From: Candidatus Omnitrophota bacterium
GTDB lineage: Bacteria > Omnitrophota > Omnitrophia > Omnitrophales > Aquincolibacteriaceae
Direction: 5' to 3'
DNA: 45,969 bases
NCBI GenBank assembly: GCA_028713205.1
Contig: JAQTOZ010000002.1
Span: forward strand, 1 to 45,969
The notes beneath the pieces are model-generated. The model did not search any database, was not told the DNA's origin, and worked only from the letters and a program-made list of their open reading frames with translations. A program made the position numbers and the translations under genes. This document shows positions 1 to 43,069 of this stretch, one piece after another (position 1 is the stretch's first letter; every line of letters starts with the position of its first letter).

Positions 1-143
1 TACCCGTTTTCCAAGGAGGAGATCAACCCGAAATAATCCTTGATGACCCGGTGCAGGACACTCGGGAAGCGATATTATCATCAGTCATATCAGGTAGCAG
101 GATGAGGGCCGCGGAGCCTTCTCCTGACGGGAAAAATTGTAAG

Positions 144-221
144 AACGCCTTTAAGTTTGAAGTTGTCAGCAGAGACAAAACCGCGCTGTCCGCTTTTAGC
201 TTAAGGGCGTTTTTCTTTTTT
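144..221 (+). terminator. Putative structured terminator of an upstream + strand gene
   Basis: AACGCCTTTAAG (144-155) pairs with CTTAAGGGCGTT (200-211, one G-U pair). An inner hairpin TTGTC-AGCAGA-GACAA is present, followed by TTTTTCTTTTTT (210-221). The long loop makes it atypical. Confidence 0.35.
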
Positions 222-238
222 GAAAGGGGCAAGACATC

Positions 239-568
239 ATGGCCACAGTCGTGTTACTGACCATCTCAAACATTTTTATGACCTTTGCCTGGTACGGGCA
301 TTTGAAGTACAAGAGCTCGCCCTTGTGGATTGCCATCCTGCTGAGCTGGCTGATCGCCTTGGCCGAATATTGTTTTCAGGTCCCGGCCAATCGCATCGGG
401 CACGGCCTTTTTACGGCGGCCCAGCTCAAGACGATCCAGGAAGTGATCACGCTGGCGGTCTTTTGCGTCTTCTCGGTGTTTTATCTCCACGAAGGTTTGA
501 AATGGAATTATATCGTCGGTTTTGTGATGATGATCGGCGCCGTTTTTTTCATTTTTACGAAATGGTAA
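239..568 (+). CDS. Small DMT-superfamily membrane protein (DUF486-like)
   Basis: 109-aa ORF with about 4 hydrophobic helices. The N-terminal TISNIFMTFAWYGHLK and C-terminal hydrophobic segments resemble DUF486/EamA-like half transporters. Confidence 0.6.
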   Translation: MATVVLLTISNIFMTFAWYGHLKYKSSPLWIAILLSWLIALAEYCFQVPANRIGHGLFTAAQLKTIQEVITLAVFCVFSVFYLHEGLKWNYIVGFVMMIGAVFFIFTKW

Positions 569-608
569 ATCGTTTCGTCAAAGCCAGGGTTGAAAGAGAG
601 GATATGAA

Positions 609-1334
609 ATGCAGTTGACGGTTCGTGAAGTTGCCAAGTTGCTGAACGTGACGGAGAAAACGGTTTACCGCTGGCTCCGGGAGGGGACGATCCCGGCCAT
701 GCGGATCCATGATCAATACCGGTTTAATCGTGCCGAGCTTTTGGAATGGGCAAGTACGCGCAAAATGACGCTCGCGCCCGAATTTTTTCAGGAAAATGCG
801 GAAGGCGGAGGTGCGGAAGTTTTACCCAGCCTTTCGGCGGCGCTCAAAACCGGCGGTATTTATTACCGTCTGGAAGGCAACGATGTGCCTTCGGTGCTGC
901 GGGCGATTGTTTCCACGTTGAAGCTGCCCGAGGAAGTCGATCGCGAGGCGCTCCGGCAGGTCTTGCTCGCGCGGGAAGAACTGGCCTCGACCGGCATCGG
1001 CGACGGGATCGCCATCCCGCATGCGCGCAATCCGATCGTGCTCAATGTTCCTTATTCGATGATCGCGTTGTCTTTTTTGAAGCAGCCCGTCGACTTTAAA
1101 GCGCTGGACCGCAAGCCGGTGAATTGTTTTTTCACTTTGGTCAGTCCGACGGCCCGGACGCATTTGCATTTGTTGTCCAAACTGGCGTTTGCCCTTCGCG
1201 ATCCCGCTTTCAAAAAAATCATTTTGCGCCCGGGAACGGCCGAAGAGATTTTAAAAGAAGCCGAGCGCATCGAAATCAATCTTGCGAAGTCCGCGGAACT
1301 CACTCAAAAAAAGAGAAAGGAGAAACGCGTTTGA
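609..1334 (+). CDS. Helix-turn-helix (MerR/excisionase-type) + PTS EIIA type-2 (PtsN-like) fusion protein
   Basis: The N terminus MQLTVREVAKLLNVTEKTVYRWLREGTIPA is a classic excisionase-type HTH. The C-terminal domain carries the EIIA(Ntr) signature STGIGDGIAIPHAR, including the phosphorylatable His. RBS GAGAGGA lies upstream. Confidence 0.7.
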   Translation: MQLTVREVAKLLNVTEKTVYRWLREGTIPAMRIHDQYRFNRAELLEWASTRKMTLAPEFFQENAEGGGAEVLPSLSAALKTGGIYYRLEGNDVPSVLRAIVSTLKLPEEVDREALRQVLLAREELASTGIGDGIAIPHARNPIVLNVPYSMIALSFLKQPVDFKALDRKPVNCFFTLVSPTARTHLHLLSKLAFALRDPAFKKIILRPGTAEEILKEAERIEINLAKSAELTQKKRKEKRV

Positions 1335-3313
1335 ATTTGATTTTGCTTTCGCTGGGGCTCCTTTGTCTGAGCGGCTTTGCCGCGCTCGTGACCAGCGCGT
1401 CGCCCCGATGGACGTCGCGGCTGGGGAGTTGGGGAGTGATACTCTCCTGCGTGATCGGATTGGTTCCTGCCGTCAAGGTCCTGGGCGACGGTCCCGCGCA
1501 GTTTTTTAAAATTCCGTGGGGGATACCGCTCGGATCTTTTGACATTGCGTTAGACGCCCTATCCGCTTTTTTTCTATTGCCGGTTTTTGTCCTTTCGGCA
1601 TTGGCCGCTCTTTACGGGCAAACCTACATGGCCGCGTGGGCCGGTAAAAAACCGCTGGGACCGGTCTGGCTTTTTTTCAATCTGTTGGTCGCAAGCATGG
1701 TGGTCGTCACGTTGTCCCGAAACGGGATTCTCTTTCTGATGGCGTGGGAGATCATGACGCTGGCGTCCTTCTTTCTCGTGACCTTCGAGGATGAACGCGC
1801 CGGGTCACGGCGTGCCGGGTGGATTTATCTGGTGGCCGCGCATATTGGGACGGCCTTTCTGCTGGCGCTTTTTGTGATGCTGTCGCACGGCAATCCTTCT
1901 TTGGATTTTGACCGGTTCAATCTCCCGGCCATGCCGGAGTATGTCAAAGGAATCCTCTTGATCCTAGCCGTGATCGGGTTCGGGACCAAAGCGGGTTTTA
2001 TCCCTTTGCATGTGTGGCTGCCGGAAGCCCATCCCGCCGCGCCGAGTCACGTCTCGAGCCTCATGTCCGGCGTGATGATCAAAATGGGAATTTATGGTTT
2101 GGTCCGCATGGTTTCCTATTTGGGCGTGCTGCCGGTTTGGTGGGGATGGCTTTTGATCGGTATCGGGTTGAGCTCCGGGATTCTGGGCGTTTTGTTCGCG
2201 CTTGCCCAACACGACTTGAAGCGCCTCCTGGCCTATCACAGCGTGGAAAATATCGGCATTATCGCCCTCGGTCTCGGTGTCGGATATTTAGGACTGGCGT
2301 ATCAGCTGCCGCTGGTGGCCGTGTTGGGATTTGCCGGCGGACTGCTGCATGTCATCAATCACGCATTGTTTAAAGGATTATTGTTTTTCGGTGCCGGTGC
2401 CGTGGCGCATGTGACCGGCACACGCGAAATTGATAGTCTCGGGGGTTGTCTCAAGCGTATGCCTTGGACGGGCGTAACTTTTTTAATCGGTGCCGCGGCG
2501 ATTGCCGGCCTGCCGCCGTTGAATGGTTTTGTCAGTGAGTTTCTGATTTATTTCGGGGCGTTTCGCGGGGCTTCTTCGGACGGTTCGCAAGCCCTGGCGA
2601 TGCTGGCCGTGATCGGTGGGCTTGCTCTGATCGGCGGGCTGGCCAGCGCCTGTTTTGCCAAAGCTTTCGGAATTATTTTTCTGGGAGAGCCGCGCACGGA
2701 CCATGCCAGGGCCGCGCACGAGGTCCCTTACGGCATGCGGATTCCGATGGCCCTGCTTGCCGCCGGCTGTGTCGGCGTCGGTCTGGGCGCGCCGTTGGCG
2801 GTGAAAATTCTCATTCAGGTTTTGCCTGTGGCGACCGGTTTGAGTTTGCCGGTCATCCGCGGGGTGTTTCCCGAAGCTGTTCATCCGCTCAATTTCATTG
2901 TCCTCCTTTCAGCCGTTTTGATTGCCCTGGCTTTTTTTATCTTTCTGCTGCGTCATGCCATGCTGACCGGACGGCATGTGCAGAAAGCCGGGACCTGGGA
3001 TTGCGGATATGCCAAACCCGGCGCGCGGATGCAATACACGGCTTCCTCCTTTGCGGATCCGTTGACCGGATTTTTCGGGTTCTTCTTACGGACGCGCCGG
3101 CATCTGGATGCCCCGTCCGGGTTTTTCCCCAAAGAGGCTGCCTTTGAAACCAAAACGCCGGACATCTTTATGGAAAACCTGCACCGGCCGGCGGTGGAAA
3201 AAATTTATGCCGGGCTATCGAAATTACGCTGGTTCCAGCACGGGCGGTTGCAACTCTATATTTTGTACATCGTGATCACCCTTTTGGCTCTGCTGGTCTG
3301 GAAGATGAGGTGA
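1331..3313 (+). CDS. HyfB / NuoL-like proton-conducting antiporter-type membrane subunit
   Basis: Polytopic protein with Mrp/NuoL-family motifs (WEIMTLASFFLV, GFIPLHVWLPEAHPAAPSHVSSLMSGVMIKMGIYG, LAYHSVENIG). I place the start at TTG 1331 (LNLILLSLG...), overlapping the upstream stop. The track ORF start at 1124 overlaps the previous CDS. Confidence 0.8.
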   Translation: MNLILLSLGLLCLSGFAALVTSASPRWTSRLGSWGVILSCVIGLVPAVKVLGDGPAQFFKIPWGIPLGSFDIALDALSAFFLLPVFVLSALAALYGQTYMAAWAGKKPLGPVWLFFNLLVASMVVVTLSRNGILFLMAWEIMTLASFFLVTFEDERAGSRRAGWIYLVAAHIGTAFLLALFVMLSHGNPSLDFDRFNLPAMPEYVKGILLILAVIGFGTKAGFIPLHVWLPEAHPAAPSHVSSLMSGVMIKMGIYGLVRMVSYLGVLPVWWGWLLIGIGLSSGILGVLFALAQHDLKRLLAYHSVENIGIIALGLGVGYLGLAYQLPLVAVLGFAGGLLHVINHALFKGLLFFGAGAVAHVTGTREIDSLGGCLKRMPWTGVTFLIGAAAIAGLPPLNGFVSEFLIYFGAFRGASSDGSQALAMLAVIGGLALIGGLASACFAKAFGIIFLGEPRTDHARAAHEVPYGMRIPMALLAAGCVGVGLGAPLAVKILIQVLPVATGLSLPVIRGVFPEAVHPLNFIVLLSAVLIALAFFIFLLRHAMLTGRHVQKAGTWDCGYAKPGARMQYTASSFADPLTGFFGFFLRTRRHLDAPSGFFPKEAAFETKTPDIFMENLHRPAVEKIYAGLSKLRWFQHGRLQLYILYIVITLLALLVWKMR

Positions 3314-3317
3314 TGAG

Positions 3318-4226
3318 GTGATCGCAGCCTGGCTCAACTTTTTGATCGTTTTGTTCGCGGCACCGTTCCTCCTCGGGATCGTCAACCGGACCAAGGCCTT
3401 TTTCGCCGGCCGCCGCGGACCACCACTGTTGCAGCTTTATTATGATTTGGCCAAGTTGTTGCGCAAAAGCGCGGTGATCAGCCGTACGACCGGTTTCATT
3501 TTCTGGCTGGGTCCCGTGGCCGGATTGGCGGCGGTTTTTTGCGCGGCCATGATGGTCCCGTTTGGCAATGCGCGGGCGCTGGTGGCGTTCAACGGGGACC
3601 TGATCTTGTTTGCCTACCTGCTCGGACTCATGCGTTTTTTTACCGTGATCGCCGCGTTGGACACAGGTTCCGCCTTTGAAGGGATGGGCGCAAGCCGCGA
3701 AGTCCAGTTTGCCGTCCTGGCGGAACCGGCGCTGTTTCTCGGACTGGCGGCGTTGACCCTCCAAACGGGCCATTTCTCTCTTTCGGACATCTATGCTTCC
3801 CTGACATGGGAGACCTGGGGCAAGGCCGGTCCCACGCTGGCGTTGATTGCCGCCGCGTTGTTGATCGTTTTTCTTGCGGAAAACTGCCGCGTACCGGTGG
3901 ACGATCCCAAGACCCATTTGGAGTTGACCATGATCCATGAAGTGATGGTGCTGGACCACAGCGGTCCCGATTTCGCGGCGATCCTTTATTCGGCGGCATT
4001 GAAGTTCTGGATTCTCGGCATGCTGATTGTCCGCCTGGCGGTCCCGGTGACCTTGGGCCATCCTTTGCCGGACGGGATCCTGTTTTTGTCGTCGATGGTT
4101 GTCCTGGCGGTTTTGATCGGCATCATCGAATCGGTCATGGCGCGGCTGCGTCTGACCAAAGTCCCGCAACTGTTGATCGTTGCGATCGCGTTTTCTATTT
4201 TAGCTTTGATTCTCGAGATGAGGTGA
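3318..4226 (+). CDS. HyfC / HycD / NuoH-like membrane subunit
   Basis: 302 aa. The N-terminal RTKAFFAGRRGPPLLQLYYDLAKLLRK is typical of HycD/NuoH. GTG start lies 4 nt after the upstream stop, preceded by GAGGTGA. Confidence 0.8.
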   Translation: MIAAWLNFLIVLFAAPFLLGIVNRTKAFFAGRRGPPLLQLYYDLAKLLRKSAVISRTTGFIFWLGPVAGLAAVFCAAMMVPFGNARALVAFNGDLILFAYLLGLMRFFTVIAALDTGSAFEGMGASREVQFAVLAEPALFLGLAALTLQTGHFSLSDIYASLTWETWGKAGPTLALIAAALLIVFLAENCRVPVDDPKTHLELTMIHEVMVLDHSGPDFAAILYSAALKFWILGMLIVRLAVPVTLGHPLPDGILFLSSMVVLAVLIGIIESVMARLRLTKVPQLLIVAIAFSILALILEMR

Positions 4227-4230
4227 TGGG

Positions 4231-4905
4231 ATGCAGGAGTTGACGGAAATCGTGATGGTGTTTCTCATCCTGGCCAATTTGTGGTTGCTGGCCTCAAGCC
4301 GGTTGATGGTGTGCATTCGTATTGTGGCTTGCCAGGGAATTGTGATCAGCCTGCTGCCTTTTTTGATCAATCGGCATCTGTTGCTGACGGAATTTCTGGC
4401 CGTCGCGGGCGTGACCGCGGCCTTAAAAGGTTTTGTCTTCCCGTGGCTTTTAAGGCGCGCCATGCGCGAAGCCAAAGTGCGCCGGGAGATCGAAACCTCC
4501 GTGCCTTATTCGGTTTCGGTTTTGATCGGGATTCTGATCTTGGCGATTTCGCTCTGGATCAGTTCGCGGTTGCCGATGCCAAAACCCGAGCTGACGGAAC
4601 TGATCGTGCCGGTTTCGTTCTTCACGATCCTGGTCGGGCTTTTTGTGATCGTCAGCCGCGTGATGGCCTTGAGCCAGGTGCTCGGTTATCTCGTCTTCGA
4701 AAACGGCATTTATGCTTTTGGCGTGGCCCTGCTCCTGGAGCAGCCGCTTTGGGTGGAACTGGGAATTTTGCTGGATGTTTTCGTCGCGGTTTTTGTTATG
4801 GGCATTATGATTTTTCATATTAGCCGGGAATTCGACAACATCAATACGGATCAACTGAGTGAATTGGCGGACTGGAATTCCCCGGAGAAGGAAGGTCGCC
4901 GATGA
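4231..4905 (+). CDS. HyfE-like small membrane subunit (NuoK-related)
   Basis: 224-aa hydrophobic protein in the position of HyfE. It has a LGYLVFENGIYAFGVALL-type segment. ATG lies 4 nt after the upstream stop, with GAGGTGA in front. Confidence 0.65.
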   Translation: MQELTEIVMVFLILANLWLLASSRLMVCIRIVACQGIVISLLPFLINRHLLLTEFLAVAGVTAALKGFVFPWLLRRAMREAKVRREIETSVPYSVSVLIGILILAISLWISSRLPMPKPELTELIVPVSFFTILVGLFVIVSRVMALSQVLGYLVFENGIYAFGVALLLEQPLWVELGILLDVFVAVFVMGIMIFHISREFDNINTDQLSELADWNSPEKEGRR

Positions 4906-6383
4906 TTTTGGCCGCCTGTCTCATCCCGTTCGCCGCAGGACTGCTGGCTTTCTTTGTCCCGTGGGACAAACCGCGCCGCGTGCTGCTGATCCTGACGGCG
5001 CTGGCGCATGCGGGCTTGGTGGCGGCGTTTTGGTTTATTCTGCCGGAGCCGAGGGTCGGCGGGTGGTTTGAGCTGGATACGATCGGAAAATATTTTCTGA
5101 GTATCACCAGCCTGTTATTTCTTGCCGCCGCGTGCTACGGCGTGGCTTATCTTTCAGGCGAAGATCGCGGGGACCGTACCGACGTGGAAGAAGGCTTTAT
5201 TTTTCAAAACGCACCGGAGGCCGTGTTCACGGGATGCCTCCTGATGTTTCTGGCGACCATGACGCTGGTGCTGATCAGCCAGCATTTCGGCATTCTCTGG
5301 ATTGCGATGGAGGCCACGACCCTCGTGAGCGCTCCGTTGATTTATTTTCACCGTCATCACCGCTCAATCGAAGCGACATGGAAATATTTGCTGATTTGCT
5401 CGGTGGGCATCGCCCTCGCGCTGTTGGGAAATCTTTTTTTGGTGATTGCCGGTTCTATCGAGGGACAAAAGGCCGTACCGCTTGTGCTCAGCGAGTTGAT
5501 CGGCAGGCACGGGGAATTAAACGTCCTCTGGCTCAAGGCGGCGTTTCTTTTTTTGCTGGTCGGTTACGGCACCAAAATGGGCCTGGCGCCATTGCACACC
5601 TGGTTGCCGGATGCCCATAGCGAAGCGCCGTCGGTCGTCTCCGCGCTTCTTTCCGGCGCGCTTCTGAATTGTGCCTTGGTCGGTATCTTGCGGACGCATC
5701 AGGTCTGCGCGGCGGCGGGATTGGGTGAGATGAGTTCGGAACTGCTGCGCGGGTTCGGGCTTTTGTCGATGTTTTTTGCCGCGCTGTTTATTCTAAGACA
5801 GCCGGATTTCAAGCGCATGCTTGCGTACTCCAGCGTTGAGCATATGGGAATTGTGGCGTTGGGGATCGGGCTGGGCGGCAGCGCGGTGTTCGGCGGTTTG
5901 TTTCACGCCGTGAATCACTCTTTGACGAAGGCCGCCTTGTTTTTCATCGCCGGAAATATCATGGCCGCTTACAATACCAAATCGGTTTCCGGCGTGCAGG
6001 GTTTGCTGCGGATGCTTCCGGTGTCTGGGATTTTATGGATTGCCGGATTTCTGGCGATTACCGGTTCGCCCCCATTCGGTTCTTTTTTAAGCGAATTTAT
6101 CATTTTGAAATCGGCCCTGGACCAGGGCCATTATTACGCGGCCGTGATTTATCTCGTGGTGCTGGCGGCGATCTTTGCGGGCATGGCCATGATTTTTCTG
6201 AACATGGCGCAGGGCGTTCCGGCTCCGGAAATGAAAATGAGCGGCGCTCGAAAGGAATCCGTCATGATGGTTTTTCCGCCGGCGGTCTTTTGCGTGCTGG
6301 TCTTGCTTTTGGGGATTTATATCCCGGAGTTTTTACGGGAAACTTTGCGGGAAGCCGCGCGGTTGTTGGGAGGCCTGGGATGA
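4902..6383 (+). CDS. HyfF / NuoN(M)-like antiporter-type membrane subunit
   Basis: 493 aa with GTKMGLAPLHTWLPDAHSEAPSVVSALLSG and LAYSSVEHMG motifs. ATGA overlap with the upstream CDS. Confidence 0.8.
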   Translation: MILAACLIPFAAGLLAFFVPWDKPRRVLLILTALAHAGLVAAFWFILPEPRVGGWFELDTIGKYFLSITSLLFLAAACYGVAYLSGEDRGDRTDVEEGFIFQNAPEAVFTGCLLMFLATMTLVLISQHFGILWIAMEATTLVSAPLIYFHRHHRSIEATWKYLLICSVGIALALLGNLFLVIAGSIEGQKAVPLVLSELIGRHGELNVLWLKAAFLFLLVGYGTKMGLAPLHTWLPDAHSEAPSVVSALLSGALLNCALVGILRTHQVCAAAGLGEMSSELLRGFGLLSMFFAALFILRQPDFKRMLAYSSVEHMGIVALGIGLGGSAVFGGLFHAVNHSLTKAALFFIAGNIMAAYNTKSVSGVQGLLRMLPVSGILWIAGFLAITGSPPFGSFLSEFIILKSALDQGHYYAAVIYLVVLAAIFAGMAMIFLNMAQGVPAPEMKMSGARKESVMMVFPPAVFCVLVLLLGIYIPEFLRETLREAARLLGGLG

Positions 6384-7903
6384 GCGGCGCTGCCTTTCTT
6401 TCGATCAGGAACGGGGACATTCTCCGGCTGAAAGATGTCCCGCATCTGGCTCCGGCGGAATTCAGAGACCATATTCTCCGGGGCGTCGACAGCGGCTGGC
6501 GTATCGTGAGCCTTTTCGGGAAACCGATTGCCGACCGCTATGTCCGTTTATACGCGGTCATGGCCAATGACCGGCAGGGTTCTTTGTCTTTGTGCTCGGC
6601 GGACGTGACCGACCAATATCCGGCCCTGACGGGTGAATGCCCGCAGGCGCACTGGTTTGAACGCGAAATCGCCGAACAGTGGGGTGTTATTCCGAAAGGA
6701 CATCCTTGGCTTAAGCCAGTCCGCTTTCACGAGGTTTATCGTTTCGGTACGGATGCCTGGGGACGCGATCCCTCAAAAAAAATCCTCCCCGGTGTCACGG
6801 ATTTTTTTCAGGTCCGCGGTGAAGAAGTTCATGAAGTCGCCGTGGGGCCGGTACACGCCGGTGTGATCGAACCCGGCCATTTCCGCTTTCAGTGCCACGG
6901 CGAAAAGGTGTTTCATCTCGAGATCTCATTGGGCTATCAGCATCGCGGCGTGGAGCGTTCTTTGATCGGTGCGCCGGCCAAACGGGTTTTTCATTACATG
7001 GAAACCCTGGCAGGGGACACGACGATCGGACACGCGACGGCCTACGCGCAGGCCATGGAAACCTTGGCGCGCTGCAAGGTGCCGGCGCGTGCGCAGGCCC
7101 TGCGCGGCGTGATGCTCGAGCTCGAGCGTTTGGCGAATCACGCCGGTGATTTGGGCGCGCTGGCCGGTGATGTGGCTTATTTGCCGACGGCCTCTTATTG
7201 CGGACGCATTCGCGGGGATTTTTTAAATTTGTCCGCGCTGATTTGCGGCAGCCGGTTCGGGCGGGGCATGATTTTGCCGGGCGGCGTCCGTTTTGATTTG
7301 GATGAAAAAAATATTGCCGAATTGCTCAGCCGGTTGAACGGTATTTACAAAAATCTTTGCGGCGCCGTGAATTTGTTGTGGGACAGTCCGTCCGTCATGA
7401 ACCGTTTTGAAGGTACCGGGACCCTTTCGGCGGAGGCCTGTGAAAATTTAGGGCTGGTGGGGATCCCGGCACGCGCCTGCGGCCTTGAGCGGGACATCCG
7501 GTTTGATTTTCCGGCGGGGATTTACCGTTTGGCGCAGTTACCTGTATCCACGTATACCTCCGGCGATGTCTTCGCGCGCGCGTATGTGCGCTGGCTGGAG
7601 GTGCAGCGTTCCGTTGATTTCCTGCAAAATCAACTGGCCACGATGCCGGAAGGCCCGGTTTCGGAAACGCTCGCCCATCCTGCTTCGGAGACGCTGACGG
7701 TTTCACTGGTCGAAGGCTGGCGCGGCGAGATCTGCCACGTGGCCATGACCGACAAACACGGCCACATCGCCCATTACAAAGTCGTGGATCCCTCCTTCCA
7801 CAATTGGATGGGGCTGGCGATGGCGTTGCGCGGTGAACCGATTTCGGATTTCCCGTTGTGCAACAAGAGTTTTAATCTTTCCTATTGCGGACATGATCTT
7901 TAA
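6380..7903 (+). CDS. HycE/HyfG-like NuoC-NuoD fusion ('large subunit') lacking the NiFe-binding cysteine motifs
   Basis: The NuoC-like N-terminal part (QAHWFEREIAEQWGV) is fused to a NuoD/HycE-like part (GPVHAGVIEPGHFRF, LGYQHRGVE). ATG 6380 overlaps the upstream stop (ATGA). The track ORF start at 6035 lies inside the upstream gene. The L1 position reads ETLAGDTTIGHA and the C terminus reads DFPLCNKSFNLSYCGHDL. Confidence 0.8.
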   Translation: MSGAAFLSIRNGDILRLKDVPHLAPAEFRDHILRGVDSGWRIVSLFGKPIADRYVRLYAVMANDRQGSLSLCSADVTDQYPALTGECPQAHWFEREIAEQWGVIPKGHPWLKPVRFHEVYRFGTDAWGRDPSKKILPGVTDFFQVRGEEVHEVAVGPVHAGVIEPGHFRFQCHGEKVFHLEISLGYQHRGVERSLIGAPAKRVFHYMETLAGDTTIGHATAYAQAMETLARCKVPARAQALRGVMLELERLANHAGDLGALAGDVAYLPTASYCGRIRGDFLNLSALICGSRFGRGMILPGGVRFDLDEKNIAELLSRLNGIYKNLCGAVNLLWDSPSVMNRFEGTGTLSAEACENLGLVGIPARACGLERDIRFDFPAGIYRLAQLPVSTYTSGDVFARAYVRWLEVQRSVDFLQNQLATMPEGPVSETLAHPASETLTVSLVEGWRGEICHVAMTDKHGHIAHYKVVDPSFHNWMGLAMALRGEPISDFPLCNKSFNLSYCGHDL

Positions 7904-7914
7904 GGAGATTTAAC

Positions 7915-8670
7915 GTGTTCAAAGTTTTGTGGACCCGGTTACAGCAGAAGCGGCGTACCGTTTCTTTTCCCAAAGGGAAGGTGAGCCTTCCGGAAAGATT
8001 CCGGGGCTTGCCGCACATTGATACCGCGCGCTGTCCGGACCACTGCCAGGAATGTGCCAAGGCCTGTCCTCTGGATGCCGTCCGCGTCGACGGCAAGAAA
8101 TTTCAGTGGGACCTCGGGAAATGTTTGTTCTGCGCGGATTGTATGGAGGCCTGTCCCGCGCACGCGATCAGTTATTCCCGCGACTACCGGCTCGCTGTCC
8201 GGAAGAAGGAAAATCTGATTTTGGACGGGCCGACACTCGAGCTTGCGCAATCTCTGGGGAAGGAAATGAAACGTTTGTTTAAACGGTCGCTACGGCTGCG
8301 CCAGGTTAGCGCGGGCGGGTGCAATGCCTGTGAGGCGGACGTGAATGTGCTGACGACGGTCGTGTTTGACCTTGCCCGGTTCGGTATTGATTTTGTTGCC
8401 TCGCCCCGGCATGCGGACGGGCTGCTCATTACGGGTCCGGTCACGGACAATATGAAATTGGCCCTGGAAAAAACTTATCAGGCGGTCCCGCATCCCAAGC
8501 TGGTGATTGCGGTAGGGGCCTGCGCCATTTCCGGCGGGCCGTACCGGGACCATGCCGAAACGCATAACGGTGCCGACAGTGTTGTCCCCGTGGACCTCTA
8601 TATTCCAGGCTGTCCGCCGCACCCGTTGACCACCTTGGACGGACTGCTCCGGCTTTTGGGCCGGCTGTGA
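7915..8670 (+). CDS. Fusion of a 2x[4Fe-4S] ferredoxin (HycF/NuoI-like) and a NuoB/HycG-like small subunit
   Basis: The N-terminal part has CPDHCQECAKACP and CLFCADCMEACP. The C-terminal part has the NuoB signature GGCNACE, GACAISGG and IPGCPPHP. GTG start is preceded by AAGGAG. Confidence 0.8.
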   Translation: MFKVLWTRLQQKRRTVSFPKGKVSLPERFRGLPHIDTARCPDHCQECAKACPLDAVRVDGKKFQWDLGKCLFCADCMEACPAHAISYSRDYRLAVRKKENLILDGPTLELAQSLGKEMKRLFKRSLRLRQVSAGGCNACEADVNVLTTVVFDLARFGIDFVASPRHADGLLITGPVTDNMKLALEKTYQAVPHPKLVIAVGACAISGGPYRDHAETHNGADSVVPVDLYIPGCPPHPLTTLDGLLRLLGRL

Positions 8671-8769
8671 TCTGTGCTTCCGGGCGTAATAGGATCTCTC
8701 GCAAGTTGTAATCCGGTCTTTTTGAATTGCGAGGAATGTGTCATTTTTGATCACGGGGGGTCCCCTTTG

Positions 8770-8793
8770 AATTTTCTCGACGTCGAGAAAATT
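8770..8793. repeat. Perfect 24-bp palindrome AATTTTCTCGAC|GTCGAGAAAATT
   Basis: Read directly from the sequence. It lies in the 233-bp gap between the Hyf-like operon and the pseudouridine synthase gene. No T-run follows. Confidence 0.9.
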
Positions 8794-8903
8794 GGATATC
8801 AGCTGAATTTTGAAGTCGACTGCAGAATTGAACAGCCCCCACCCCCGACAGGCCGGTAAACCGTAGCGCTTTTGGAGATGTTCTGATAATCTGTTAACTC
8901 ATC

Positions 8904-9659
8904 ATGAATGAAAACCTAACTGCCCAATCCCGTTGCCCCGTCCTTTATCGCGATCAGTGGCTCTTGATCGTCAACAAACCGGCGGGCATTCTTTCGCATC
9001 CAAACCCCGTTCGCTCCGGCAAGGGAGCGCCACCGAAAGGGAAGCCGGCGGCGGCCGCGTTTCAGGGAAATTATCATTTTGAAGATCGCCGGTTTGACAC
9101 GCCCGCAGGGCCTGTTTGGCTGATTCACCGGCTGGACCAGGACGTCTCCGGCGTGTTGCTCGCGACATTGGACCGCGAGACGGCACAAAGCTGCCGCGCG
9201 CTTTTTGAAAAACATGAAATTCAGAAGCGCTATCTGGCGCTGGTCGCGGGACGGCCGGTACCCGCCTCGGGAAAATGGCGCGATCACCTTGCGGAAAGGC
9301 GGCAGGCTTCGTTCGTGCGCGGTTTTGTCCGCTCCTCCGCCCATGCGAACGCGGAATTGCGGTACCGCACCCTGAAATTTTTCCAGCGCGAGCAGCTGGC
9401 GCTTTTGGAGATCGAATTGATTACGGGCAAGACGCACCAGATCCGGGTGCAATCGGCTTTTCACCGGCATCCGGTTATCGGCGACGGTGTGTACGGAAAT
9501 TTTATGCTCAACCGTAAACTTCGCAAGGACCTCGGACTCCGGCACATTTTCCTGCATGCGGCCCAACTGGGCCTGAAACATCCCAAGACCGGCCAATTCC
9601 TCATGATCGAGGCCCCGCTGCCGGAAGAATTGCAGAGCGGCCTGGATCGCGCCTACTGA
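8904..9659 (+). CDS. RluA-family RNA pseudouridine synthase
   Basis: HRLDQDVSGVLL (catalytic Asp motif), GKTHQIRVQ and GDGVYG motifs are present. There is no S4 domain. Confidence 0.8.
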   Translation: MNENLTAQSRCPVLYRDQWLLIVNKPAGILSHPNPVRSGKGAPPKGKPAAAAFQGNYHFEDRRFDTPAGPVWLIHRLDQDVSGVLLATLDRETAQSCRALFEKHEIQKRYLALVAGRPVPASGKWRDHLAERRQASFVRGFVRSSAHANAELRYRTLKFFQREQLALLEIELITGKTHQIRVQSAFHRHPVIGDGVYGNFMLNRKLRKDLGLRHIFLHAAQLGLKHPKTGQFLMIEAPLPEELQSGLDRAY

Positions 9660-9780: not shown

Positions 9781-10638
9781 ATGAGTGACGGTTCGCCCAA
9801 AGGGAAAAGCGTCGGTCTTTTGACGGCATTCACGCCCGAAATTTTCAAGAGTGAGTATTTCACCCGCATTATTTCCGGGATCATCGACGCGCTGCGCAAT
9901 ACGGAATTTTCTCTGAAGCTCGTCATGGTCAAGGACGAGGAATACGCGGACCCGAGCCGCAAGATTTTTCGGGAACATTCGCTGGACGGCCTGATGTTGC
10001 TGACGTGGCGGATTCATCCCAAGTATATCGAAGAGGCCATTGCCGGGTCGGAACTCCCCGTCGTCATCATCAATGACTACACGCCGGAACTCAAAGCCAA
10101 TATCGTGTATTGCGATAACAAACTCGGCGTCCGGCTCGCGCTCAGGCATTTGATCAGCCGTGGCTTCCGCAAGGTGGGCATTTTGCAGGGGCCGGACGAG
10201 GCCTCGCTGGACGCGCGCGAGAGATTGCAGCATTGGACCGAGCTCCTGCGGGATTGCGACATGACTTTCGACAGGGAGCATTACCGCAAATGCGATTATT
10301 TTTTTGAAGAAGACGGTTACCTGAAAATGATGGACATCATTCATCACTCCAAAAGCCTGCCCCGCGCCATGCTTTGTTTCAACGATGACATCGCCATCGG
10401 CGCCATCAAGGCGCTCAAGGAATCCTGGATCCGTTGCCCCGAGCAGGTGGCCGTGATCGGCTACGACGGGATCGATAAGGGCCGGTATGTCGATCCGCCG
10501 TTGACCACCATTCGCCAGCCGCTGGAGCGCATGGGTGCCGAGATGGTCAACGTGATGACCGGCTTGATCGAAGGAAAACTGCGCGGGCCCGTGCAAAAAA
10601 TGTTTCAACCCGAACTTGTCGTCCGGCGTTCGTGCTAA
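9781..10638 (+). CDS. LacI/PurR-type periplasmic-binding-fold sensor domain protein without a DNA-binding domain
   Basis: Starts at KSVGLLTAFTPEIFKSEYF, the position just after the hinge in LacI repressors. It continues with DGLMLL, VVIINDY, ICFNDDIAIGAIKAL-like and GYDGI ... TTIRQP motifs. The 120-nt upstream gap has stops in all frames. Confidence 0.65.
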   Translation: MSDGSPKGKSVGLLTAFTPEIFKSEYFTRIISGIIDALRNTEFSLKLVMVKDEEYADPSRKIFREHSLDGLMLLTWRIHPKYIEEAIAGSELPVVIINDYTPELKANIVYCDNKLGVRLALRHLISRGFRKVGILQGPDEASLDARERLQHWTELLRDCDMTFDREHYRKCDYFFEEDGYLKMMDIIHHSKSLPRAMLCFNDDIAIGAIKALKESWIRCPEQVAVIGYDGIDKGRYVDPPLTTIRQPLERMGAEMVNVMTGLIEGKLRGPVQKMFQPELVVRRSC

Positions 10639-15952: not shown

Positions 15953-18900
15953 ATGAGTTCATTCCAGTCCGTGATCGATAAAGCTCGCCAGAAGCTGCTT
16001 GCCCAAAAGGATCAAACCGAGGGCCGGAATCCGCCGGCTCCGCCAAGTGCAGAACCTCAAATCTTCGCCGGCTGGAATCATATGCTGGGGGAACTCGGCT
16101 TGTTGCTGGAGTCCTTTGAATCCGTGATTCAAGAGATCGATTCCGAGAAATCCTTTATTCAAAAAATCCGGAATCTCGACGGGAAAAGTGTCCCGGCCTC
16201 CCGTTTTAAAATGGAATCCCTGCGGAAATCGCTGAAGGATGCGATCTTTACCGCGGAGGCCCTGGCGGCGCTCGAAACCCGCCAGATTTTGACCAGCCAT
16301 AGCCGTTTGGAATCGGCCGAGGAGGCCGTCCGGGATTTGGAGAAGAAACTTGGCGAAAATTCGTTTGGCTCGACCCGGGAGGTCGCGCAACTGCGCGAGG
16401 AGCTGAAAAAATCCCGGGAACAAACGGATGATTTGCGCCGCCGGCTGGCGGCATCGGAAACCGATCAGCGCCAGGCCAAAGACCAGATGACGGCTTTGGA
16501 ACTTCGCAAAAACCGTTTCGAAGCCGAACTCCAGGAAATTCGCGGGCAAAGCGGTGACTTCGAAGAAAAATCCGCCGAACTTTTAAAGCAAATCGAAACG
16601 CTGGAATCGGAAAAACACGAGCTTGAATCCAAACACACCCGGTTGGAATTGGAGAAGGCCGAGCTCAAGAGGTCCTTGCTTCAGAAGCAGACGGAGTATG
16701 CGCGTTTTGTGGAAGACAGTGTCCGTTTGCGTCATGAACTTGAAGCGGAGCTTGGCAAGGTGCGCAATGAATCCATTAGCCTGAAAAACGAAGCGAAGGG
16801 CTTGCGAGCGCTCCTGGATATTGTCGAAGCGGACAAACGCGGTCTTGCGGAACAAAAGTCGGCAGCGGAAAAGCAAAAGGCCGAAATCGAAAAAGCCTTT
16901 GCGGATAAAGAACAGGAGTACCGCAGCCGGATGGACGAGAGCGCGCGTTTAAGCGGCGAATTTGAAAGAAAGCTTCTTGCCAAAGAAAAGGAATACGGGG
17001 AACTCGTCGAAGAGAGTTCCCGCACCCAAGGTGCGCTTGAGGCCGAGTTGATTCCGTTGCGCCAGGACATCGAGAAATGGAAAGCGCGTGCCGGAGAACT
17101 TTGGATGCAAGTGGAGACGCTGGAAAAGGGCAGGCAGGAAACCGATTCCACCCGCGCCGCTCTTGAAAAAGAAAAAGCGGATATTCAATCCGAACTCTTC
17201 CGGTTGCGTGACGAGGCCCGGACTTGGCAATCCAAGCATGATGAGATGGCTAACCGCATCGGACTTTTGGAGGTTGTCCGCAGGGATCTCGAAGCCGGTC
17301 AAGCGGCGGTTGCGGAAGAGAAGGGCAGGCTTGAAGCGATGCTCAAAGGGAAGGAAGCCGAGTGTCAGGGGTTGACGGAAGAAAATGCGCGCATGCGGGG
17401 GGAGATCGAGTCCGGGCTGCATGAATCCCTGGATAGGGTAAGGCAGTGGAAGTCTCGGTCCGAAGAATTGAGCAAAGAACTTGAGTCTTTGGAAGCGCAG
17501 AAGCGCGAACTCGAGGAGCAGCGGATCAAATTTGAATACGAAAAGGATGAGCTGCTGCAAAGGTTTAAAATTAAAGACGCGGAATACCGGGAAGTCGTCG
17601 AGCGCAGTGCCCAAATGCAGGGACGGCTTGAAGAAGATCTGCTGCGGTCGCGTGAACAGACCGGTGTTTGGCAAAGCAAGGCCGAAGAACTTTTAAGACA
17701 AATCGAATCTTTGGAAAAGACAAAACTGGAAATCGAGGCGAAGCTTGCGGACGCCCTCCGAGACAATGAAGCGCTCGCTCAGCAGCTGCAGGCGAAGAAT
17801 GCCGAACATCAGAATTTGGTAGAAGAGAGCGCGCGTATCCGGACAGAACTTGAGCGTGCTCTCGGGGATTCCCGGGAGGAATGCGGCAGCTGGAAAAGCA
17901 AGGTCGAAGAGCTGGTCCGGCAGCTTGAGGCGGAAGATGTGCTTAAGCGGGAAATCGAAGCCGATCGTTCTGCGAGAGCTCGGGAGAAAGAGTCCTTTGA
18001 GGAAATGCTCGCGGCCAAAGATGAGGAATACCGGCGCACGGTTGAGGAAAGCGCCCGTTTGCGGGCCGAGTTTGAGGCGGAGCTCCAGAAAACGCGCGAG
18101 GAATCCGGAAACTGGAAGATGAAAGCCGAGGAATATGTTCAGCGGCTTGAACGGATCGAGATCCAGGAACGTGAAATCGAAAAGCAACGGGCTTTTATCG
18201 AAAGCGAAAAGGCCGGGATCGATGAAAAACTTCTGGCCAAAGATTCGCAATATCTGCGTTTACTCGAAGACGGGGCGCAGGGGCGTTCTGCGCTCGAAGA
18301 CGAGCTCCGGCAATCCCGGGAAGAGACGACGGAATGGAAGGGCAAAATCAACGGTTTGGTCAAACAGCTCCAGGCCGTGGAATCCGCCAAGCGGGAGCTT
18401 GAAGAAAAGAAGTCCTTGATGGAAAGGACCGCGGCAGCCGCGGAGGCCAAGTTAGCCGTTCGCGAAGAAGAATTCCGCCGTGCGGGAGAAGAGAGCGCAA
18501 AACTGCGCGGGGCCCTTGAAAATGAATTATGGCAAGTCCGCCGGGACTCGAAGAAATGGGAAAGCGCGGCCGAGAAAGTGATGGTGGAGCGCCGTTTGTT
18601 TGAGCTCGAGAAACAGAAGCTCCAGCGTATCCTGATCAAGGGGCACCAGACGATCGAGGAGTGGCAAAACCGGTATAAAGAGGCCGTGATCGAGCTGGAG
18701 GCATTACGGAAGAATACGGCACCGGGACGGGAGCGGGAACAAAATCTATTTGATGCGCAAAACCGTGAAATCAACAAGTGGAAAGAGGCCTGCCAAGTCC
18801 TCGAGAAAAAGATGGCGGTCGCGCGTGATTTGTTCGTGCAACGTTTAGGCGATTGCGCCGAGGAGATTGATTCTTGGAAGCGTAAGGCCCAGGCGGCGGC

Positions 18901-19168
18901 CGATGCATTGCAAAAGGCATTGGAAAAAGAGAAGCCCCAGGCGGGCCAGGCCGCCAATGAATTCCGGCCGCGACCGGCGCGGGAAAATGTTTATGTGCTG
19001 ACAGAATCAGCGGCGGTTAAGGAAGCGAAGCGGAAGCTTGCCGAGAAAACAGAGAAAGAAGATATCCATAAGATGCAGCCGGTGGCGCCCAATGCGGATT
19101 CGGACAAAGGCAGCCGCAGCAGTATTTTTGAATTGCGCCGCTTTCAGGATATCATCGAAGGGGAATAA
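15953..19168 (+). CDS. Giant coiled-coil protein with tandem 74-residue modules (no recognisable enzymatic domain)
   Basis: Uninterrupted 1071-aa ORF, E/K/R/L/A/Q-rich, with no signal peptide or TM helix. The periodic motifs are described in the findings. Confidence 0.8.
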   Translation: MSSFQSVIDKARQKLLAQKDQTEGRNPPAPPSAEPQIFAGWNHMLGELGLLLESFESVIQEIDSEKSFIQKIRNLDGKSVPASRFKMESLRKSLKDAIFTAEALAALETRQILTSHSRLESAEEAVRDLEKKLGENSFGSTREVAQLREELKKSREQTDDLRRRLAASETDQRQAKDQMTALELRKNRFEAELQEIRGQSGDFEEKSAELLKQIETLESEKHELESKHTRLELEKAELKRSLLQKQTEYARFVEDSVRLRHELEAELGKVRNESISLKNEAKGLRALLDIVEADKRGLAEQKSAAEKQKAEIEKAFADKEQEYRSRMDESARLSGEFERKLLAKEKEYGELVEESSRTQGALEAELIPLRQDIEKWKARAGELWMQVETLEKGRQETDSTRAALEKEKADIQSELFRLRDEARTWQSKHDEMANRIGLLEVVRRDLEAGQAAVAEEKGRLEAMLKGKEAECQGLTEENARMRGEIESGLHESLDRVRQWKSRSEELSKELESLEAQKRELEEQRIKFEYEKDELLQRFKIKDAEYREVVERSAQMQGRLEEDLLRSREQTGVWQSKAEELLRQIESLEKTKLEIEAKLADALRDNEALAQQLQAKNAEHQNLVEESARIRTELERALGDSREECGSWKSKVEELVRQLEAEDVLKREIEADRSARAREKESFEEMLAAKDEEYRRTVEESARLRAEFEAELQKTREESGNWKMKAEEYVQRLERIEIQEREIEKQRAFIESEKAGIDEKLLAKDSQYLRLLEDGAQGRSALEDELRQSREETTEWKGKINGLVKQLQAVESAKRELEEKKSLMERTAAAAEAKLAVREEEFRRAGEESAKLRGALENELWQVRRDSKKWESAAEKVMVERRLFELEKQKLQRILIKGHQTIEEWQNRYKEAVIELEALRKNTAPGREREQNLFDAQNREINKWKEACQVLEKKMAVARDLFVQRLGDCAEEIDSWKRKAQAAADALQKALEKEKPQAGQAANEFRPRPARENVYVLTESAAVKEAKRKLAEKTEKEDIHKMQPVAPNADSDKGSRSSIFELRRFQDIIEGE
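16463..18907 (+). repeat. At least 10 tandem 222-nt (74-codon) protein-level repeats inside the coiled-coil CDS
   Basis: TGG codons at 17225, 17447, 17669, 17891, 18113, 18335, 18557 and 18779 are each exactly 222 nt apart. The lattice extends upstream to the TTC codon at 16559. Confidence 0.85.
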
Positions 19169-19220
19169 CCGGACGAACGGTTTGTCCTCATGCCCTCGAA
19201 TTTCAAATAACCGACAACGT

Positions 19221-20195
19221 ATGACCAAAACTTTTTTTCTGATCTATTTGGCCCTTTTTCTTTTCAGTTCTGCCGATTTTGCTTACGGCGGTGCGGCGGA
19301 CCCGCGGCGGCTCAAGGCGGCGAAAGAAGCTCGGGCCCAGGCGGCTTTGATGCGGGCGCAGGCGGCGCAGGGGCAGCTTTCCCCGGAAATGGTGGCTGCG
19401 TATCAGGCCCAAGCGCAGGGGGGCCCCTCCACCGGGGGTGCGGCGACAGCCCAAAAACCCGGGACTTATGAATCACGTGTTTCGGGGCTTCCCAAACCTT
19501 CGGCTTCTTCGAAATTTCAAATGACGCCGGCGAAACCGGCGCAAAAACAAAGCTCCTTCCCGGTCGCAAAGACAAGTTCGGCTCCGGTGACCGTTTCTGC
19601 GGCACCCAAAGTGACAGTCGTTTCACCCTCTCCGGCGAAACCATCGGAAAGTACCGAGCCGTCTCCTTCGAAAACACAGCAGGTGATTGTCATCCCTCGT
19701 TCGGCCGGTTCTCCGGCCGGTTCGGGTGCGGGAACGCCGACGCAAGCGGTTCAACCCGTCACACCGAAGACGATTGTGTCGGCCTCGAGTCCGGCGACCG
19801 CCGCAAAACCCATTCCGGTGCCCAAGCCGGTGTCTCCCCCGACGTCTTCCGCGCCGGACATTGCCAAAGCGGTTCAGCAAATGAAAGTTACGAGTACCAA
19901 CTGGGGACGGATTCAAAGTCAGGAGACAAAGACGGCCATTGCGGGCTATTTCATCGCGGAATACAAACGGCGGGGCGTGATGATCAAAAACACACCGGAA
20001 TATTACGCCGGTGCGATTGACGAAATGACGCGGCAAAACCCGGATTTTCTTTCACAACCCTTCGACAAACTCCTTCGGTTTGTGTCGGTCATCGACTACG
20101 ATTATGACAACGGGCAAGACAAAGATCAGATGGTGTTACAGTTTCTGGGTCCCGAAGGTGCTAAACGTAACCGTCAGCGGCTTGGCTTGGAGTAA
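19221..20195 (+). CDS. Secreted protein with a long Pro/Ser/Ala/Thr-rich linker and a C-terminal globular domain of unknown function
   Basis: ATG 19221 gives the signal peptide MTKTFFLIYLALFLFSSADFAYG. About 200 aa of low-complexity PSAT-rich sequence follow, then WGRIQSQETKTAIAGYFIAEYKRRG...DYDYDNGQDKD. The track ORF start at 19038 overlaps the upstream gene. Confidence 0.6.
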   Translation: MTKTFFLIYLALFLFSSADFAYGGAADPRRLKAAKEARAQAALMRAQAAQGQLSPEMVAAYQAQAQGGPSTGGAATAQKPGTYESRVSGLPKPSASSKFQMTPAKPAQKQSSFPVAKTSSAPVTVSAAPKVTVVSPSPAKPSESTEPSPSKTQQVIVIPRSAGSPAGSGAGTPTQAVQPVTPKTIVSASSPATAAKPIPVPKPVSPPTSSAPDIAKAVQQMKVTSTNWGRIQSQETKTAIAGYFIAEYKRRGVMIKNTPEYYAGAIDEMTRQNPDFLSQPFDKLLRFVSVIDYDYDNGQDKDQMVLQFLGPEGAKRNRQRLGLE

Positions 20196-36124: not shown

Positions 36125-36207
36125 TCCGTTTGGGTGATTGAAAAACAGGGGCTTTGCTGAAATTCAACATAGGATTCCAACAGAGGGCTTCTCCGAGAGA
36201 GGATGCG

Positions 36208-41399: not shown

Positions 41400-41428
41400 T
41401 TCCGAAGCAGGTCTCGAGGTAACACAAA

Positions 41429-43012: not shown

Positions 43013-43069
43013 ACCGGATACCCCGGAAGCGGGTTTCACAACACCCAGATAGGAAGGAGAAAGATCGAA

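Follow-up and report, generated by a model that had tools for sequence, protein, structure and literature searches.

A predicted Geobacter-type ehr operon in a Candidatus Omnitrophota contig, with a conserved HTH-EIIA gene and a large subunit lacking the NiFe cysteines

Introduction

What does a membrane complex built like a group 4 [NiFe] hydrogenase do when its large subunit does not have the cysteines that hold the metal? This question is raised by a gene cluster at positions 609-8670 of contig JAQTOZ010000002.1 (assembly GCA_028713205.1), assigned to a Candidatus Omnitrophota bacterium, of which the first 45,969 nucleotides, hereafter the window, have been analyzed. By gene content and order, the cluster is a complete ehr operon of the Geobacter type (regulator-ehrA-B-C-D-L-S), and its predicted product is a complex of six subunits related to group 4 hydrogenases and to complex I. 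An initial reading made from the letters only (the sequence-only reading) had placed the cluster in the energy-converting hydrogenase related (Ehr) class. This assignment stands, based on the synteny with Geobacter-group loci, an EhrL identity of 56-59% with these loci, and the absence of NiFe ligands.

The Ehr family was first described about two decades ago. The complex of Geobacter sulfurreducens was reportedly named by Coppi (2005), and the concept is said to have been generalized by Marreiros et al. (2013). The term designates group-4-related complexes without Ni/Fe-coordinating cysteines (PMC6349859, PMC10284858). In G. sulfurreducens, the complex that bears the name Ehr is encoded by GSU0739-0745, with EhrA, C, L and S as subunits (PMC7894505). 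The reading that no electron donor or acceptor had been established agrees with papers up to 2023, in which the function of Ehr is still called unknown (PMC6349859, PMC10284858, bioRxiv 10.1101/765248, PMC7304191), but has to be qualified for the sister subfamily Hyq, for which in vivo H2 genetics exist. The ehr locus of the window adds no new kind of system: it belongs to a known, very common and still unexplained family. Newly found here are a conserved gene encoding a putative helix-turn-helix (HTH)-EIIA regulator and, as mapped by alignment, the invariant residues of the EhrL pocket.

Gene content and identity of the ehr operon

The ehr genes are located on the + strand at 1331-3313 (ehrA, 660 aa, TTG start), 3318-4226 (ehrB, 302 aa), 4231-4905 (ehrC, 224 aa), 4902-6383 (ehrD, 493 aa), 6380-7903 (ehrL, 507 aa) and 7915-8670 (ehrS, 251 aa). 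The stop codon of the preceding regulator gene overlaps the TTG start of ehrA (TTGA, 1331-1334), ATGA overlaps join ehrC to ehrD at 4902 and ehrD to ehrL at 6380, and the remaining neighbors are separated by 4, 4 and 11 nt. The subunits were assigned with Pfam and NCBIfam, by BLASTP against E. coli K-12 reference proteins and by phmmer against PDB chains. The six coupled coding sequences, with their overlaps and their gaps of 4-11 nt, are as the sequence-only reading had described them, and its attribution of HyfB-, HyfC-, HyfE-, HyfF-, HycE/HyfG- and HycF+HycG-like subunits agrees with all of these searches. It had considered a six-gene module: the six structural genes are indeed there, but the conserved unit comprises seven genes, the HTH-EIIA gene at 609-1334 included. 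The homology E-values range from 1e-35 to 1e-189 and the same layout is found in thousands of homologues, far beyond chance. The NCBIfam scores of all ehr products are under the equivalog cut-offs, and these proteins are therefore Hyf homologues rather than Hyf orthologues.

The Ehr definition fits the window, as its large subunit is homologous to group 4 large subunits and NuoD and does not have the Ni/Fe cysteines, while NuoB-like Fe-S, NuoH-like and Mrp/NuoL-type antiporter-like subunits are all encoded. EhrL is 56-59% identical to its counterparts from Geobacter, Geomonas, Pelobacter and Geothrix loci, which exhibit the same gene order. Among the 80 loci kept for synteny comparison, outside of which G. 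sulfurreducens itself falls, those from Geobacter, Geomonas, Pelobacter and Geobacteraceae (L024, L035, L037, L041, L044) are syntenic with the window, with an EhrL identity of 56-58%. The Geobacter Ehr and that of the window share the set and order of EhrA (NuoL-like), B, C (HyfE-like), D, L and S, and the ETxAGDTT and FPLCNKSFNLSYCG.DL motifs of Geobacter-group EhrL are identical to those of the window. Geobacter-type loci contain the HTH-EIIA gene as well. These loci differ by a second ehrA and by the divergent orientation of regulator-ehrA1 and ehrA2BCDLS (L024, L035, L071), whereas the window has one ehrA in a single co-directional seven-gene unit.

As the sequence-only reading had indicated, hyp, hycI, hycB and formate dehydrogenase genes do not accompany the cluster: Pfam analysis of 29 open reading frames (ORFs) of the window, 20 of them outside the cluster, revealed none of these, nor hycH or nuoEFG. 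A tblastn search with E. coli HypA/B, HycI/H/B, HyfA/J and NuoE/F/G returned nothing relevant in the whole window (46 kb) and in 160 related loci reaching ±6-10 kb. A conserved redox partner next to ehr was also sought by all-against-all clustering of the ORFs within ±10 kb of the 80 loci; only shadow ORFs and the regulator emerged, and this candidate was rejected on the basis of the clustering and of tblastn. A scan of positions 1-9200 for sigma-70 promoters and terminators gave signals at background level. DNA runs with the locus come from landfill metagenomes and, at weaker match, from those of sludge, lakes and wetlands; the search of RNA runs found none carrying it.

The large subunit EhrL

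EhrL (6380-7903) is a fusion of NuoC-like and NuoD/HycE-like parts (Pfam Complex1_30kDa and Complex1_49kDa). Its best PDB sequence match is HycE (7z0s_E, 2.4e-46), and that to MbsL is weak (6u8y_L, 1.1e-15). BLASTP identities are 28% to HycE and HyfG and 21-24% to NuoCD. An AF2 model calculated with 120 sequences reached a predicted local distance difference test score (pLDDT) of 84 and a predicted template modelling score of 0.89. Foldseek returned 7z0s_E as the top match (template modelling score 0.84), followed by E. coli NuoCD (~0.8). The confidence of the pocket loops 157-166 and 497-504 is below 50, and the model supports the fold only, not the pocket geometry. A first AlphaFold model, based on 20 close homologues, was discarded (pLDDT 62).

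The active-site columns were assigned with two independent alignments, phmmer against PDB chains and MAFFT with E. coli HycE, HyfG and NuoCD. The equivalent of the L1 motif is the segment ETLAGDTTIGH (residues 208-218, nt 7001-7033), which aligns with DRVCGICGFAH of HycE/HyfG and places A211 and T214 where HycE has C241 and C244. The L2 equivalent is located in the C-terminal segment DFPLCNKSFNLSYCGHDL (residues 490-507, nt 7847-7900), in which NLSYCGHDL aligns with DPCYSCTDR of HycE, with S501 and G504 replacing C531 and C534. EhrL therefore has neither the L1 CxxC (R-x-C-G-x-C-x-x-x-H) nor the L2 CxxC (D-P-C-x-x-C-x-x-H/R) by which group 4 [NiFe] hydrogenases are recognized. The absence of the four NiFe cysteines claimed by the sequence-only reading is thus confirmed by alignment with HycE, HyfG and NuoCD, a part of the comparison that it had proposed. 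The family statistics are based on 82 homologues from 80 species genomes of many phyla. None of the 82 has a cysteine in any of the four ligand columns: position 211 is A, S or G, position 214 is T, S, A or V, and S501 and G504 are invariant. C503 sits between the two L2 ligand columns and belongs to neither; it is replaced by A or S in 7 of the 82 sequences. The same cysteine-less tail, with few variants, terminates all of the 120 best database relatives.

The C terminus of EhrL falls in the same column as the HycE processing site and the NuoCD C terminus, so that nothing is left for an endopeptidase to cleave; a C-terminal extension occurs in 0/82 homologues. When EhrL is aligned with Thermus thermophilus Nqo4, G212 and I163, both invariant, occupy the columns of Tyr87 and His38, the quinone head-group ligands of the 49-kDa/NuoD subunit. 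As aligned, EhrL cannot hold a NiFe center through the four canonical cysteines, nor does it have the Tyr and His quinone ligands of complex I. Its site is hence predicted to be neither hydrogenase-like nor complex-I-like.

This site is highly conserved. The two most conserved stretches of EhrL are residues 154-171 (AVGPVHAGVIEPGHFRFQ, nt 6839-6892), forming the β1-β2 loop, and residues 492-503 (PLCNKSFNLSYC). The former, AVGPVHAGxIEPGHFRFQ, retains the hydrogenase-type E-P-G-H-F. The β1-β2 and C-terminal elements are those that line the NiFe site of hydrogenases and, in complex I, the Q site. The invariant residues comprise H159, I163, E164, H167, G212, D213 and H218, as well as R448, N495, K496, S501, Y502, G504 and D506; E164, H218 and R448 correspond to second-sphere residues of hydrogenases. 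This pattern indicates that the former active-site pocket is the part of EhrL under the strongest selection, and not a decaying relic.

The iron–sulfur subunit and the membrane arm

EhrS (7915-8670) is a fusion of two proteins that are separate in E. coli. Its HycF/NuoI-like domain (residues ~1-105, nt 7915-8229) contains two [4Fe-4S] motifs, and its HycG/NuoB-like domain (residues ~113-250, nt 8251-8664) contains the four cysteines of the proximal cluster. BLASTP identities are 33% to HycF for residues 1-102 and 42-45% to HycG and HyfI for residues 109-251, and the PDB matches are HycG (7z0s_G, 6.2e-34, query 113-250) and HycF (7z0s_F, 1.3e-14, query 11-102). The four proximal-cluster cysteines that the sequence-only reading had recognized are C136, C139, C203 and C233. 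The HycF-like half has eight cysteines arranged as Cx3Cx2Cx3CP and CxxCxxCxxxCP. All 12 are 90-99% conserved in 69 homologues, which leaves a predicted three-cluster Fe-S wire intact, with two [4Fe-4S] on the HycF-like side and an N2-like cluster on the NuoB-like side.

EhrA (1331-3313) is a HyfB/HycC/NuoL-like antiporter-type membrane subunit, 38% identical to HyfB (E 5e-118), with an NCBIfam HyfB score of 631.7 bits against a cut-off of 667; its best PDB match is HycC (7z0s_C, 1.7e-75, residues 63-594). Conserved in 72 homologues are W-E in transmembrane helix (TM) 5, the K of GFGTKAG in TM7, and a K in both TM8 and TM12. EhrB (3318-4226; Pfam NADHdh 7.8e-35), the NuoH/HycD/HyfC-like subunit located where the two arms meet, is 31-33% identical to HycD and HyfC and 42% to Rhizobium HyqC, and its acidic loop E..R.P.DDP.THLELTMiHEvMvLDh is conserved in 63 homologues. 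The small subunit EhrC (4231-4905) matches HyfE both by BLASTP and in NCBIfam (4.3e-22, 79 bits); its C-terminal half is NuoK-like, and its membrane glutamates are conserved in GYL..ENG and VE.G.LLD. EhrD (4902-6383), of the HyfF/NuoM/N-like antiporter type (NCBIfam HyfF 1.1e-106), is 38% identical to E. coli HyfF and exhibits a TM5 E, a TM7 K (GYGTKMG) and a TM12 K that are conserved in 68 homologues. To judge from these residues, the membrane arm is intact, with EhrB, EhrC and two antiporter-like subunits carrying the canonical Glu/Lys set.

The HTH-EIIA gene

The gene at 609-1334 (+ strand) encodes a 241-aa protein with an N-terminal HTH_17 domain (excisionase/MerR-like; Pfam 5.9e-17) followed by a phosphotransferase system (PTS) EIIA-2 domain similar to PtsN/EIIA-Ntr (PTS_EIIA_2, 1.8e-25). 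The phospho-acceptor His138 is part of an I-P-H motif, in which P137 and H138 are invariant in the family alignment. The order regulator-ehrA(-ehrA2)-B-C-D-L-S recurs across the 80 genome loci. The HTH-EIIA gene is present in the ehr cluster of 41 of the 52 genome loci with enough upstream sequence and, in 35 of those 41, lies directly upstream of a same-strand ehrA. In a reverse scan, in which metagenome contigs were searched with the regulator alignment, an ehrA-like gene follows immediately downstream in 53 of the 57 loci offering at least 600 nt. Both series are drawn from the best 80 matches per scan and describe the closer relatives. In most scorable loci, the stop codon of the regulator gene adjoins the ehrA start or overlaps with it. 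The HTH-EIIA gene is a conserved seventh member of the ehr unit in most lineages, and it would be co-transcribed and, apparently, translationally coupled with ehrA. At least 6576 database homologues exhibit the PF12728 + PF00359 architecture, and their source names are only "PTS nitrogen regulatory IIA component" or "PTS sugar transporter subunit IIA". No description of the regulator-ehr link or of the pocket chemistry was found in the searchable literature.

The DNA upstream of the regulator gene was surveyed in regions from loci L001-L160 (for example L004, L009 and L086). Within 200 nt, TGGACA/TGTCCA and TTGACA each occur in 46 of 115 regions, as compared to about 11 expected, and 86 of 113 TGTC[CA]A sites fall between -80 and -20. 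In a layout seen repeatedly, T[GT]GACA lies near -77 and is followed by two TGTCCA near -49 and -39, 10 nt apart, which may together represent a promoter plus operator. This layout is absent from positions 369-608, upstream of the regulator of the window, a difference attributed to a small membrane-protein gene (DMT_6/DUF486, 239-568, + strand) ending 40 nt before the regulator. As this distance is so short, the ehr operon may be co-transcribed with the DMT_6/DUF486 gene in the window. This neighbor is not conserved in other loci, and a terminator-like hairpin is located just upstream of it, at 191-209.

Distribution and variants of the Ehr family

A protein search returned at least 8000 scored EhrL relatives, of which the best 120 are 64-70% identical and originate from NC10, Verrucomicrobiota, Omnitrophota, Kryptonia and Deltaproteobacteria. 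In their sources, these relatives are called either "Ni,Fe-hydrogenase III large subunit" or "NADH-quinone oxidoreductase subunit C". When one genome per species was scanned, Ehr was identified in at least 597 species. These include Geobacter, Geomonas, Pelobacter and Geothrix and, more widely, Geobacterales, Acidobacteriota, Verrucomicrobiota and Planctomycetota, besides Spirochaetota, Gemmatimonadota, Elusimicrobia, Chlamydiota, Omnitrophota and others. The organism of the window, an uncultured bacterium from a landfill metagenome, is outside the scanned species genomes; its best genome match is at 65% and its best database match at 70%.

Several variants have been observed along with the common layout. 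A second ehrA is present in many lineages. In Opitutae-type loci (L055, L058, L066, L070, L075, L077), a divergent regulator (24-28% identity) is located between two ehrA copies. Two Ehr-type clusters lie side by side in L035 (4870-12292 and 13251-20569) and in L047 (2250-9986 and 9812-12262). The large subunits of the second clusters are ~35% identical to the EhrL of the window, with SGDTT/SGDSS and, as in Hyq, an SYSG tail in which Ser replaces Cys; they have no cysteine at the C503 position, and one tail keeps a single cysteine while the other has none. On one long-read contig (L166), a gene for DabA (DUF2309, CO2-uptake; 5459-7743, - strand) lies a few kb upstream of an HTH-EIIA/ehr cluster, whose ehr genes are broken by frameshifts that are probably assembly errors.

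Comparison with hydrogenases, complex I and Hyq

The best sequence and structure matches of every subunit are found in formate hydrogenlyase-1 (FHL-1; Hyc, PDB 7Z0S) and Hyf, of group 4a. The hyf order B-C-(D)-E-F-G-H-I matches the ehr order of the window, and both systems share the hydrogenase-type EPGHF loop and a CxxC in the NuoB-like subunit. They are distinguished by the absence in the window of the NiFe cysteines, of the C-terminal extension cleaved by HycI, and of HycB/HyfA, FdhF, HycH/HyfJ and Hyp genes nearby, as well as by the fusion of HycF with HycG and by identities of only 27-45%. With complex I (PDB 7Z7T, 4HEA), the window shares the Q-module and P-module core architecture, the lack of NiFe ligands, the column of the NuoCD C terminus and the antiporter Glu/Lys pattern. 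Complex I differs by the Nqo4 Tyr87 and His38 that become G212 and I163, and by NuoA, NuoJ and NuoEFG, which are all absent from the window with its six structural genes only. NuoB of complex I has a tandem CC, where the NuoB-like part of EhrS has CxxC.

Another parallel is provided by Hyq. Ehr and Hyq have been listed together as group 4 subtypes without NiFe ligands (Degli Esposti, PMC4758237). The Azorhizobium caulinodans hyqRBCEFGI operon has been described as encoding a respiratory "endo-hydrogenase", the expression of which is NifA-dependent (NifA/sigma-54, aerobic diazotrophs). Its deletion slows diazotrophic growth and, in a hup-minus background, abolishes ~80% of a very high microaerobic H2 evolution; this evidence for H2 uptake and evolution comes from in vivo whole-cell genetics, without enzyme assays. 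The 504-aa HyqG has neither CxxC motif but conserves Cys-258, -491 and -497, and its authors call the NiFe site "uncertain, if not unlikely" (PMC2650096, PMC3357923 for all these points).

The reference used for comparison was the hyq cluster of Rhizobium ruizarguesonis plasmid pTA1_4. Its HyqG is 35-36% identical to EhrL, with RTSGDSTVAY in the L1 position, DFPLCNKSFNCSYSGHDL as the C-terminal sequence, and both C491 and C497. Hyq and the window share a regulator gene followed by the B-C-E-F-G-I order, a NuoC::NuoD fusion with the GD[ST][ST] motif and the FPLCNKSFNxSYxGHDL tail, and a small subunit retaining the four proximal-cluster cysteines. In contrast, HyqI is a NuoB-only protein of 177 aa without the HycF-like two-cluster domain, and HyqR is a 104-aa XRE/HTH_3 protein, while the window has an HTH_17-EIIA regulator. 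The short XRE-type HyqR and the NuoB-only HyqI that characterize rhizobial Hyq are thus not those of the window. Homology between HyqR and the regulator of the window was considered and rejected (BLASTP E = 53). Based on the shared order and cysteine-less motifs at 35% identity, Hyq is a sister subfamily of the Ehr of the window. An H2 phenotype is reported for Hyq only, not for window-type Ehr.

Possible function of the complex

The explanation that best accounts for the locus, and that we hold with moderate confidence, is an oxidoreductase that is fed by ferredoxin, translocates ions and has a non-metal pocket, encoded by a PTS-regulated Geobacter-type ehr operon. As in Ech, Mbh and FHL, the exposed HycF-like domain would accept electrons from reduced ferredoxin or another low-potential carrier. 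Because no conserved partner module is found near ehr, it is simplest to assume a soluble donor that acts on this domain without an intermediary. From the HycF-like domain of EhrS, electrons would pass to the proximal cluster and then to an acceptor in or next to the EhrL pocket, presumably lined with hydroxyls and carboxylates (D213, T214, T215, S501, N495, K496, Y502). The redox step would drive H+ or Na+ through EhrB, C, D and A, or operate in the reverse direction, and the conserved β1-β2 and C-terminal loops of EhrL would couple the acceptor step to ion movement. Menaquinone is the leading guess for the acceptor, still a tentative one; ferredoxin-to-menaquinone transfer is favored because the presence of two to three antiporter-like subunits points to a sizeable driving force. 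Such a reaction would answer the need of ferredoxin-producing anaerobes, for example Geobacter, to reoxidize ferredoxin.

The dedicated HTH-EIIA protein would probably set ehr expression, phosphorylation of His138 by an HPr/NPr-type PTS relay altering its DNA binding, and this control would tie the pump to the carbon/nitrogen (phosphoenolpyruvate, PEP) status. In known EIIA-containing PTS-controlled transcription factors, phosphorylation of the EIIA histidine by HPr or NPr changes DNA binding, and the regulator of the window most likely behaves, by analogy, as one of these. The broader proposal, that a PTS-phosphorylatable HTH-EIIA protein governs the widespread Ehr and that the cysteine-less pocket genuinely serves catalysis or coupling, with a substrate new to the superfamily, is speculative and on balance doubtful.

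Several observations weigh against a ferredoxin-fed, PTS-regulated pump reducing menaquinone. The donor and acceptor of window-type Ehr are purely inferred. The quinone hypothesis has to face the missing Tyr and His ligands in EhrL. Furthermore, Ehr-bearing Riflemargulisbacteria (PMC6349859) and bacteria of the candidate phyla radiation (PMC7304191) are reported to have no quinone biosynthesis, although they belong to other Ehr subclades. In Geobacter, Ehr subunits are up on formate (PMC7894505), which could point instead to a formate- or H2-linked role. On the regulatory side, the EIIA protein might be a partner or subunit of the complex rather than a transcription factor, the window itself shows no evident operator upstream of ehr, and the association counts are those of the closer relatives.

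Among the alternatives, the one that survives best, an unlikely one all the same, keeps the same machine but has a hydrophilic small-molecule acceptor reduced at or beside the proximal [4Fe-4S] cluster, as proposed for polysulfide in archaeal MBS. The polar character of the pocket (D213, T214, T215, N495, K496, S501, Y502) and the absence of quinone ligands are consistent with it, as are the reports that some Ehr-bearing lineages have no quinones (PMC6349859). Iron-sulfur-cluster-catalyzed sulfane sulfur reduction, described for MBS (PMC7684303), provides a precedent in the same superfamily. However, the gene context yields no candidate substrate, the similarity to MbsL is weak, and the sizeable free-energy drop implied by two to three antiporter-like subunits suits a ferredoxin-to-quinone reaction better.

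A non-canonical hydrogenase of the Hyq type, in which the cysteine-less EhrL makes or consumes H2 as an H2:quinone oxidoreductase at a site without the classical CxxC pairs, seems improbable. The idea draws on the Azorhizobium phenotypes (PMC2650096, PMC3357923), obtained with an operon of the same gene order whose HyqG has lost both CxxC motifs. It also draws on the motif and tail common to Rhizobium HyqG and EhrL, the invariant proton-relay and "canopy" residues E164 and R448, and the response of Geobacter Ehr to formate. Against it, the four metal-ligand columns are non-cysteine in 82/82 homologues, and tblastn found no hyp or hycI in the window or the 160 related loci. Moreover, Hyq is distant from EhrL, has another small subunit and an XRE-type regulator, and owes its H2 phenotype to whole-cell genetics, its own authors doubting a NiFe site.

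It seems likewise improbable that the complex performs no net catalysis and acts as a redox-gated or secondary Mrp-like cation/proton antiporter, or as a sensor, with Fe-S clusters that only sense redox state. EIIA-Ntr regulates K+ transport in enterobacteria, and the PtsN-like EIIA domain encoded alongside ehr would fit such a role, as would the Mrp-like membrane subunits and the lack of a recognizable substrate site in EhrL. Yet the whole 12-cysteine wire is conserved and no part of EhrL is better conserved than the former active-site loops, a constraint that fits a catalytic or coupling site better than a relic. Finally, an ordinary group 4 [NiFe] hydrogenase whose cysteines are missing through an alignment or frame artefact has only the overall homology to HycE and HyfG in its favor and can be dismissed, given the non-cysteine residues of the four ligand columns in two independent alignments and in all 82 homologues, the same cysteine-less tail in the 120 database relatives, and an intact ehrL ORF ending at the conserved C terminus.

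Other genes in the window

The remainder of the window encodes housekeeping and regulatory proteins according to Pfam. Downstream of the ehr operon, a LacI-family ligand-binding protein (Peripla_BP_3, 9781-10638, + strand) apparently misses its N-terminal HTH: an upstream extension of the ORF is impossible, and the NCBIfam matches start at about profile position 59-68. A highly charged coiled-coil protein of 1071 aa with a long periodic repeat (15953-19168, + strand) precedes a Pro/Ser/Ala-rich ORF (19038-20195). The segment 24588-27923 (+ strand) encodes a 7TM-receptor histidine kinase (HisKA_7TM + HATPase_c) and, after it, a two-receiver protein without an output domain. An orphan membrane protein of the RnfD/NqrB family (36154-36978, + strand; Pfam NQR2_RnfD_RnfE 1.7e-22) is not accompanied by other rnf or nqr genes. 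A glucan-metabolism group at 40347-45180 (+ strand) begins with a DUF4912 protein (Pfam) and contains, as read by eye, a putative GH57-type enzyme (41429-43012) and an alpha-amylase-like protein (43699-45180), both on the + strand.

Significance

Ehr complexes are among the most widespread uncharacterized members of the complex I/hydrogenase superfamily. As they are often mis-annotated as hydrogenase III or NADH-quinone oxidoreductase, they can distort predictions of H2 metabolism from metagenomes. The invariant pocket residues of EhrL form a defined set for mutagenesis, and the conserved PTS-type regulator gives a handle on the conditions that induce the ehr operon. If the HTH-EIIA protein does control Ehr, this would be a complex-I-like ion pump switched by the PEP/nitrogen-PTS state. 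Once the substrates of Ehr are known, a missing piece of anaerobic bioenergetics, and of the account of how complex I originated, would be in place.

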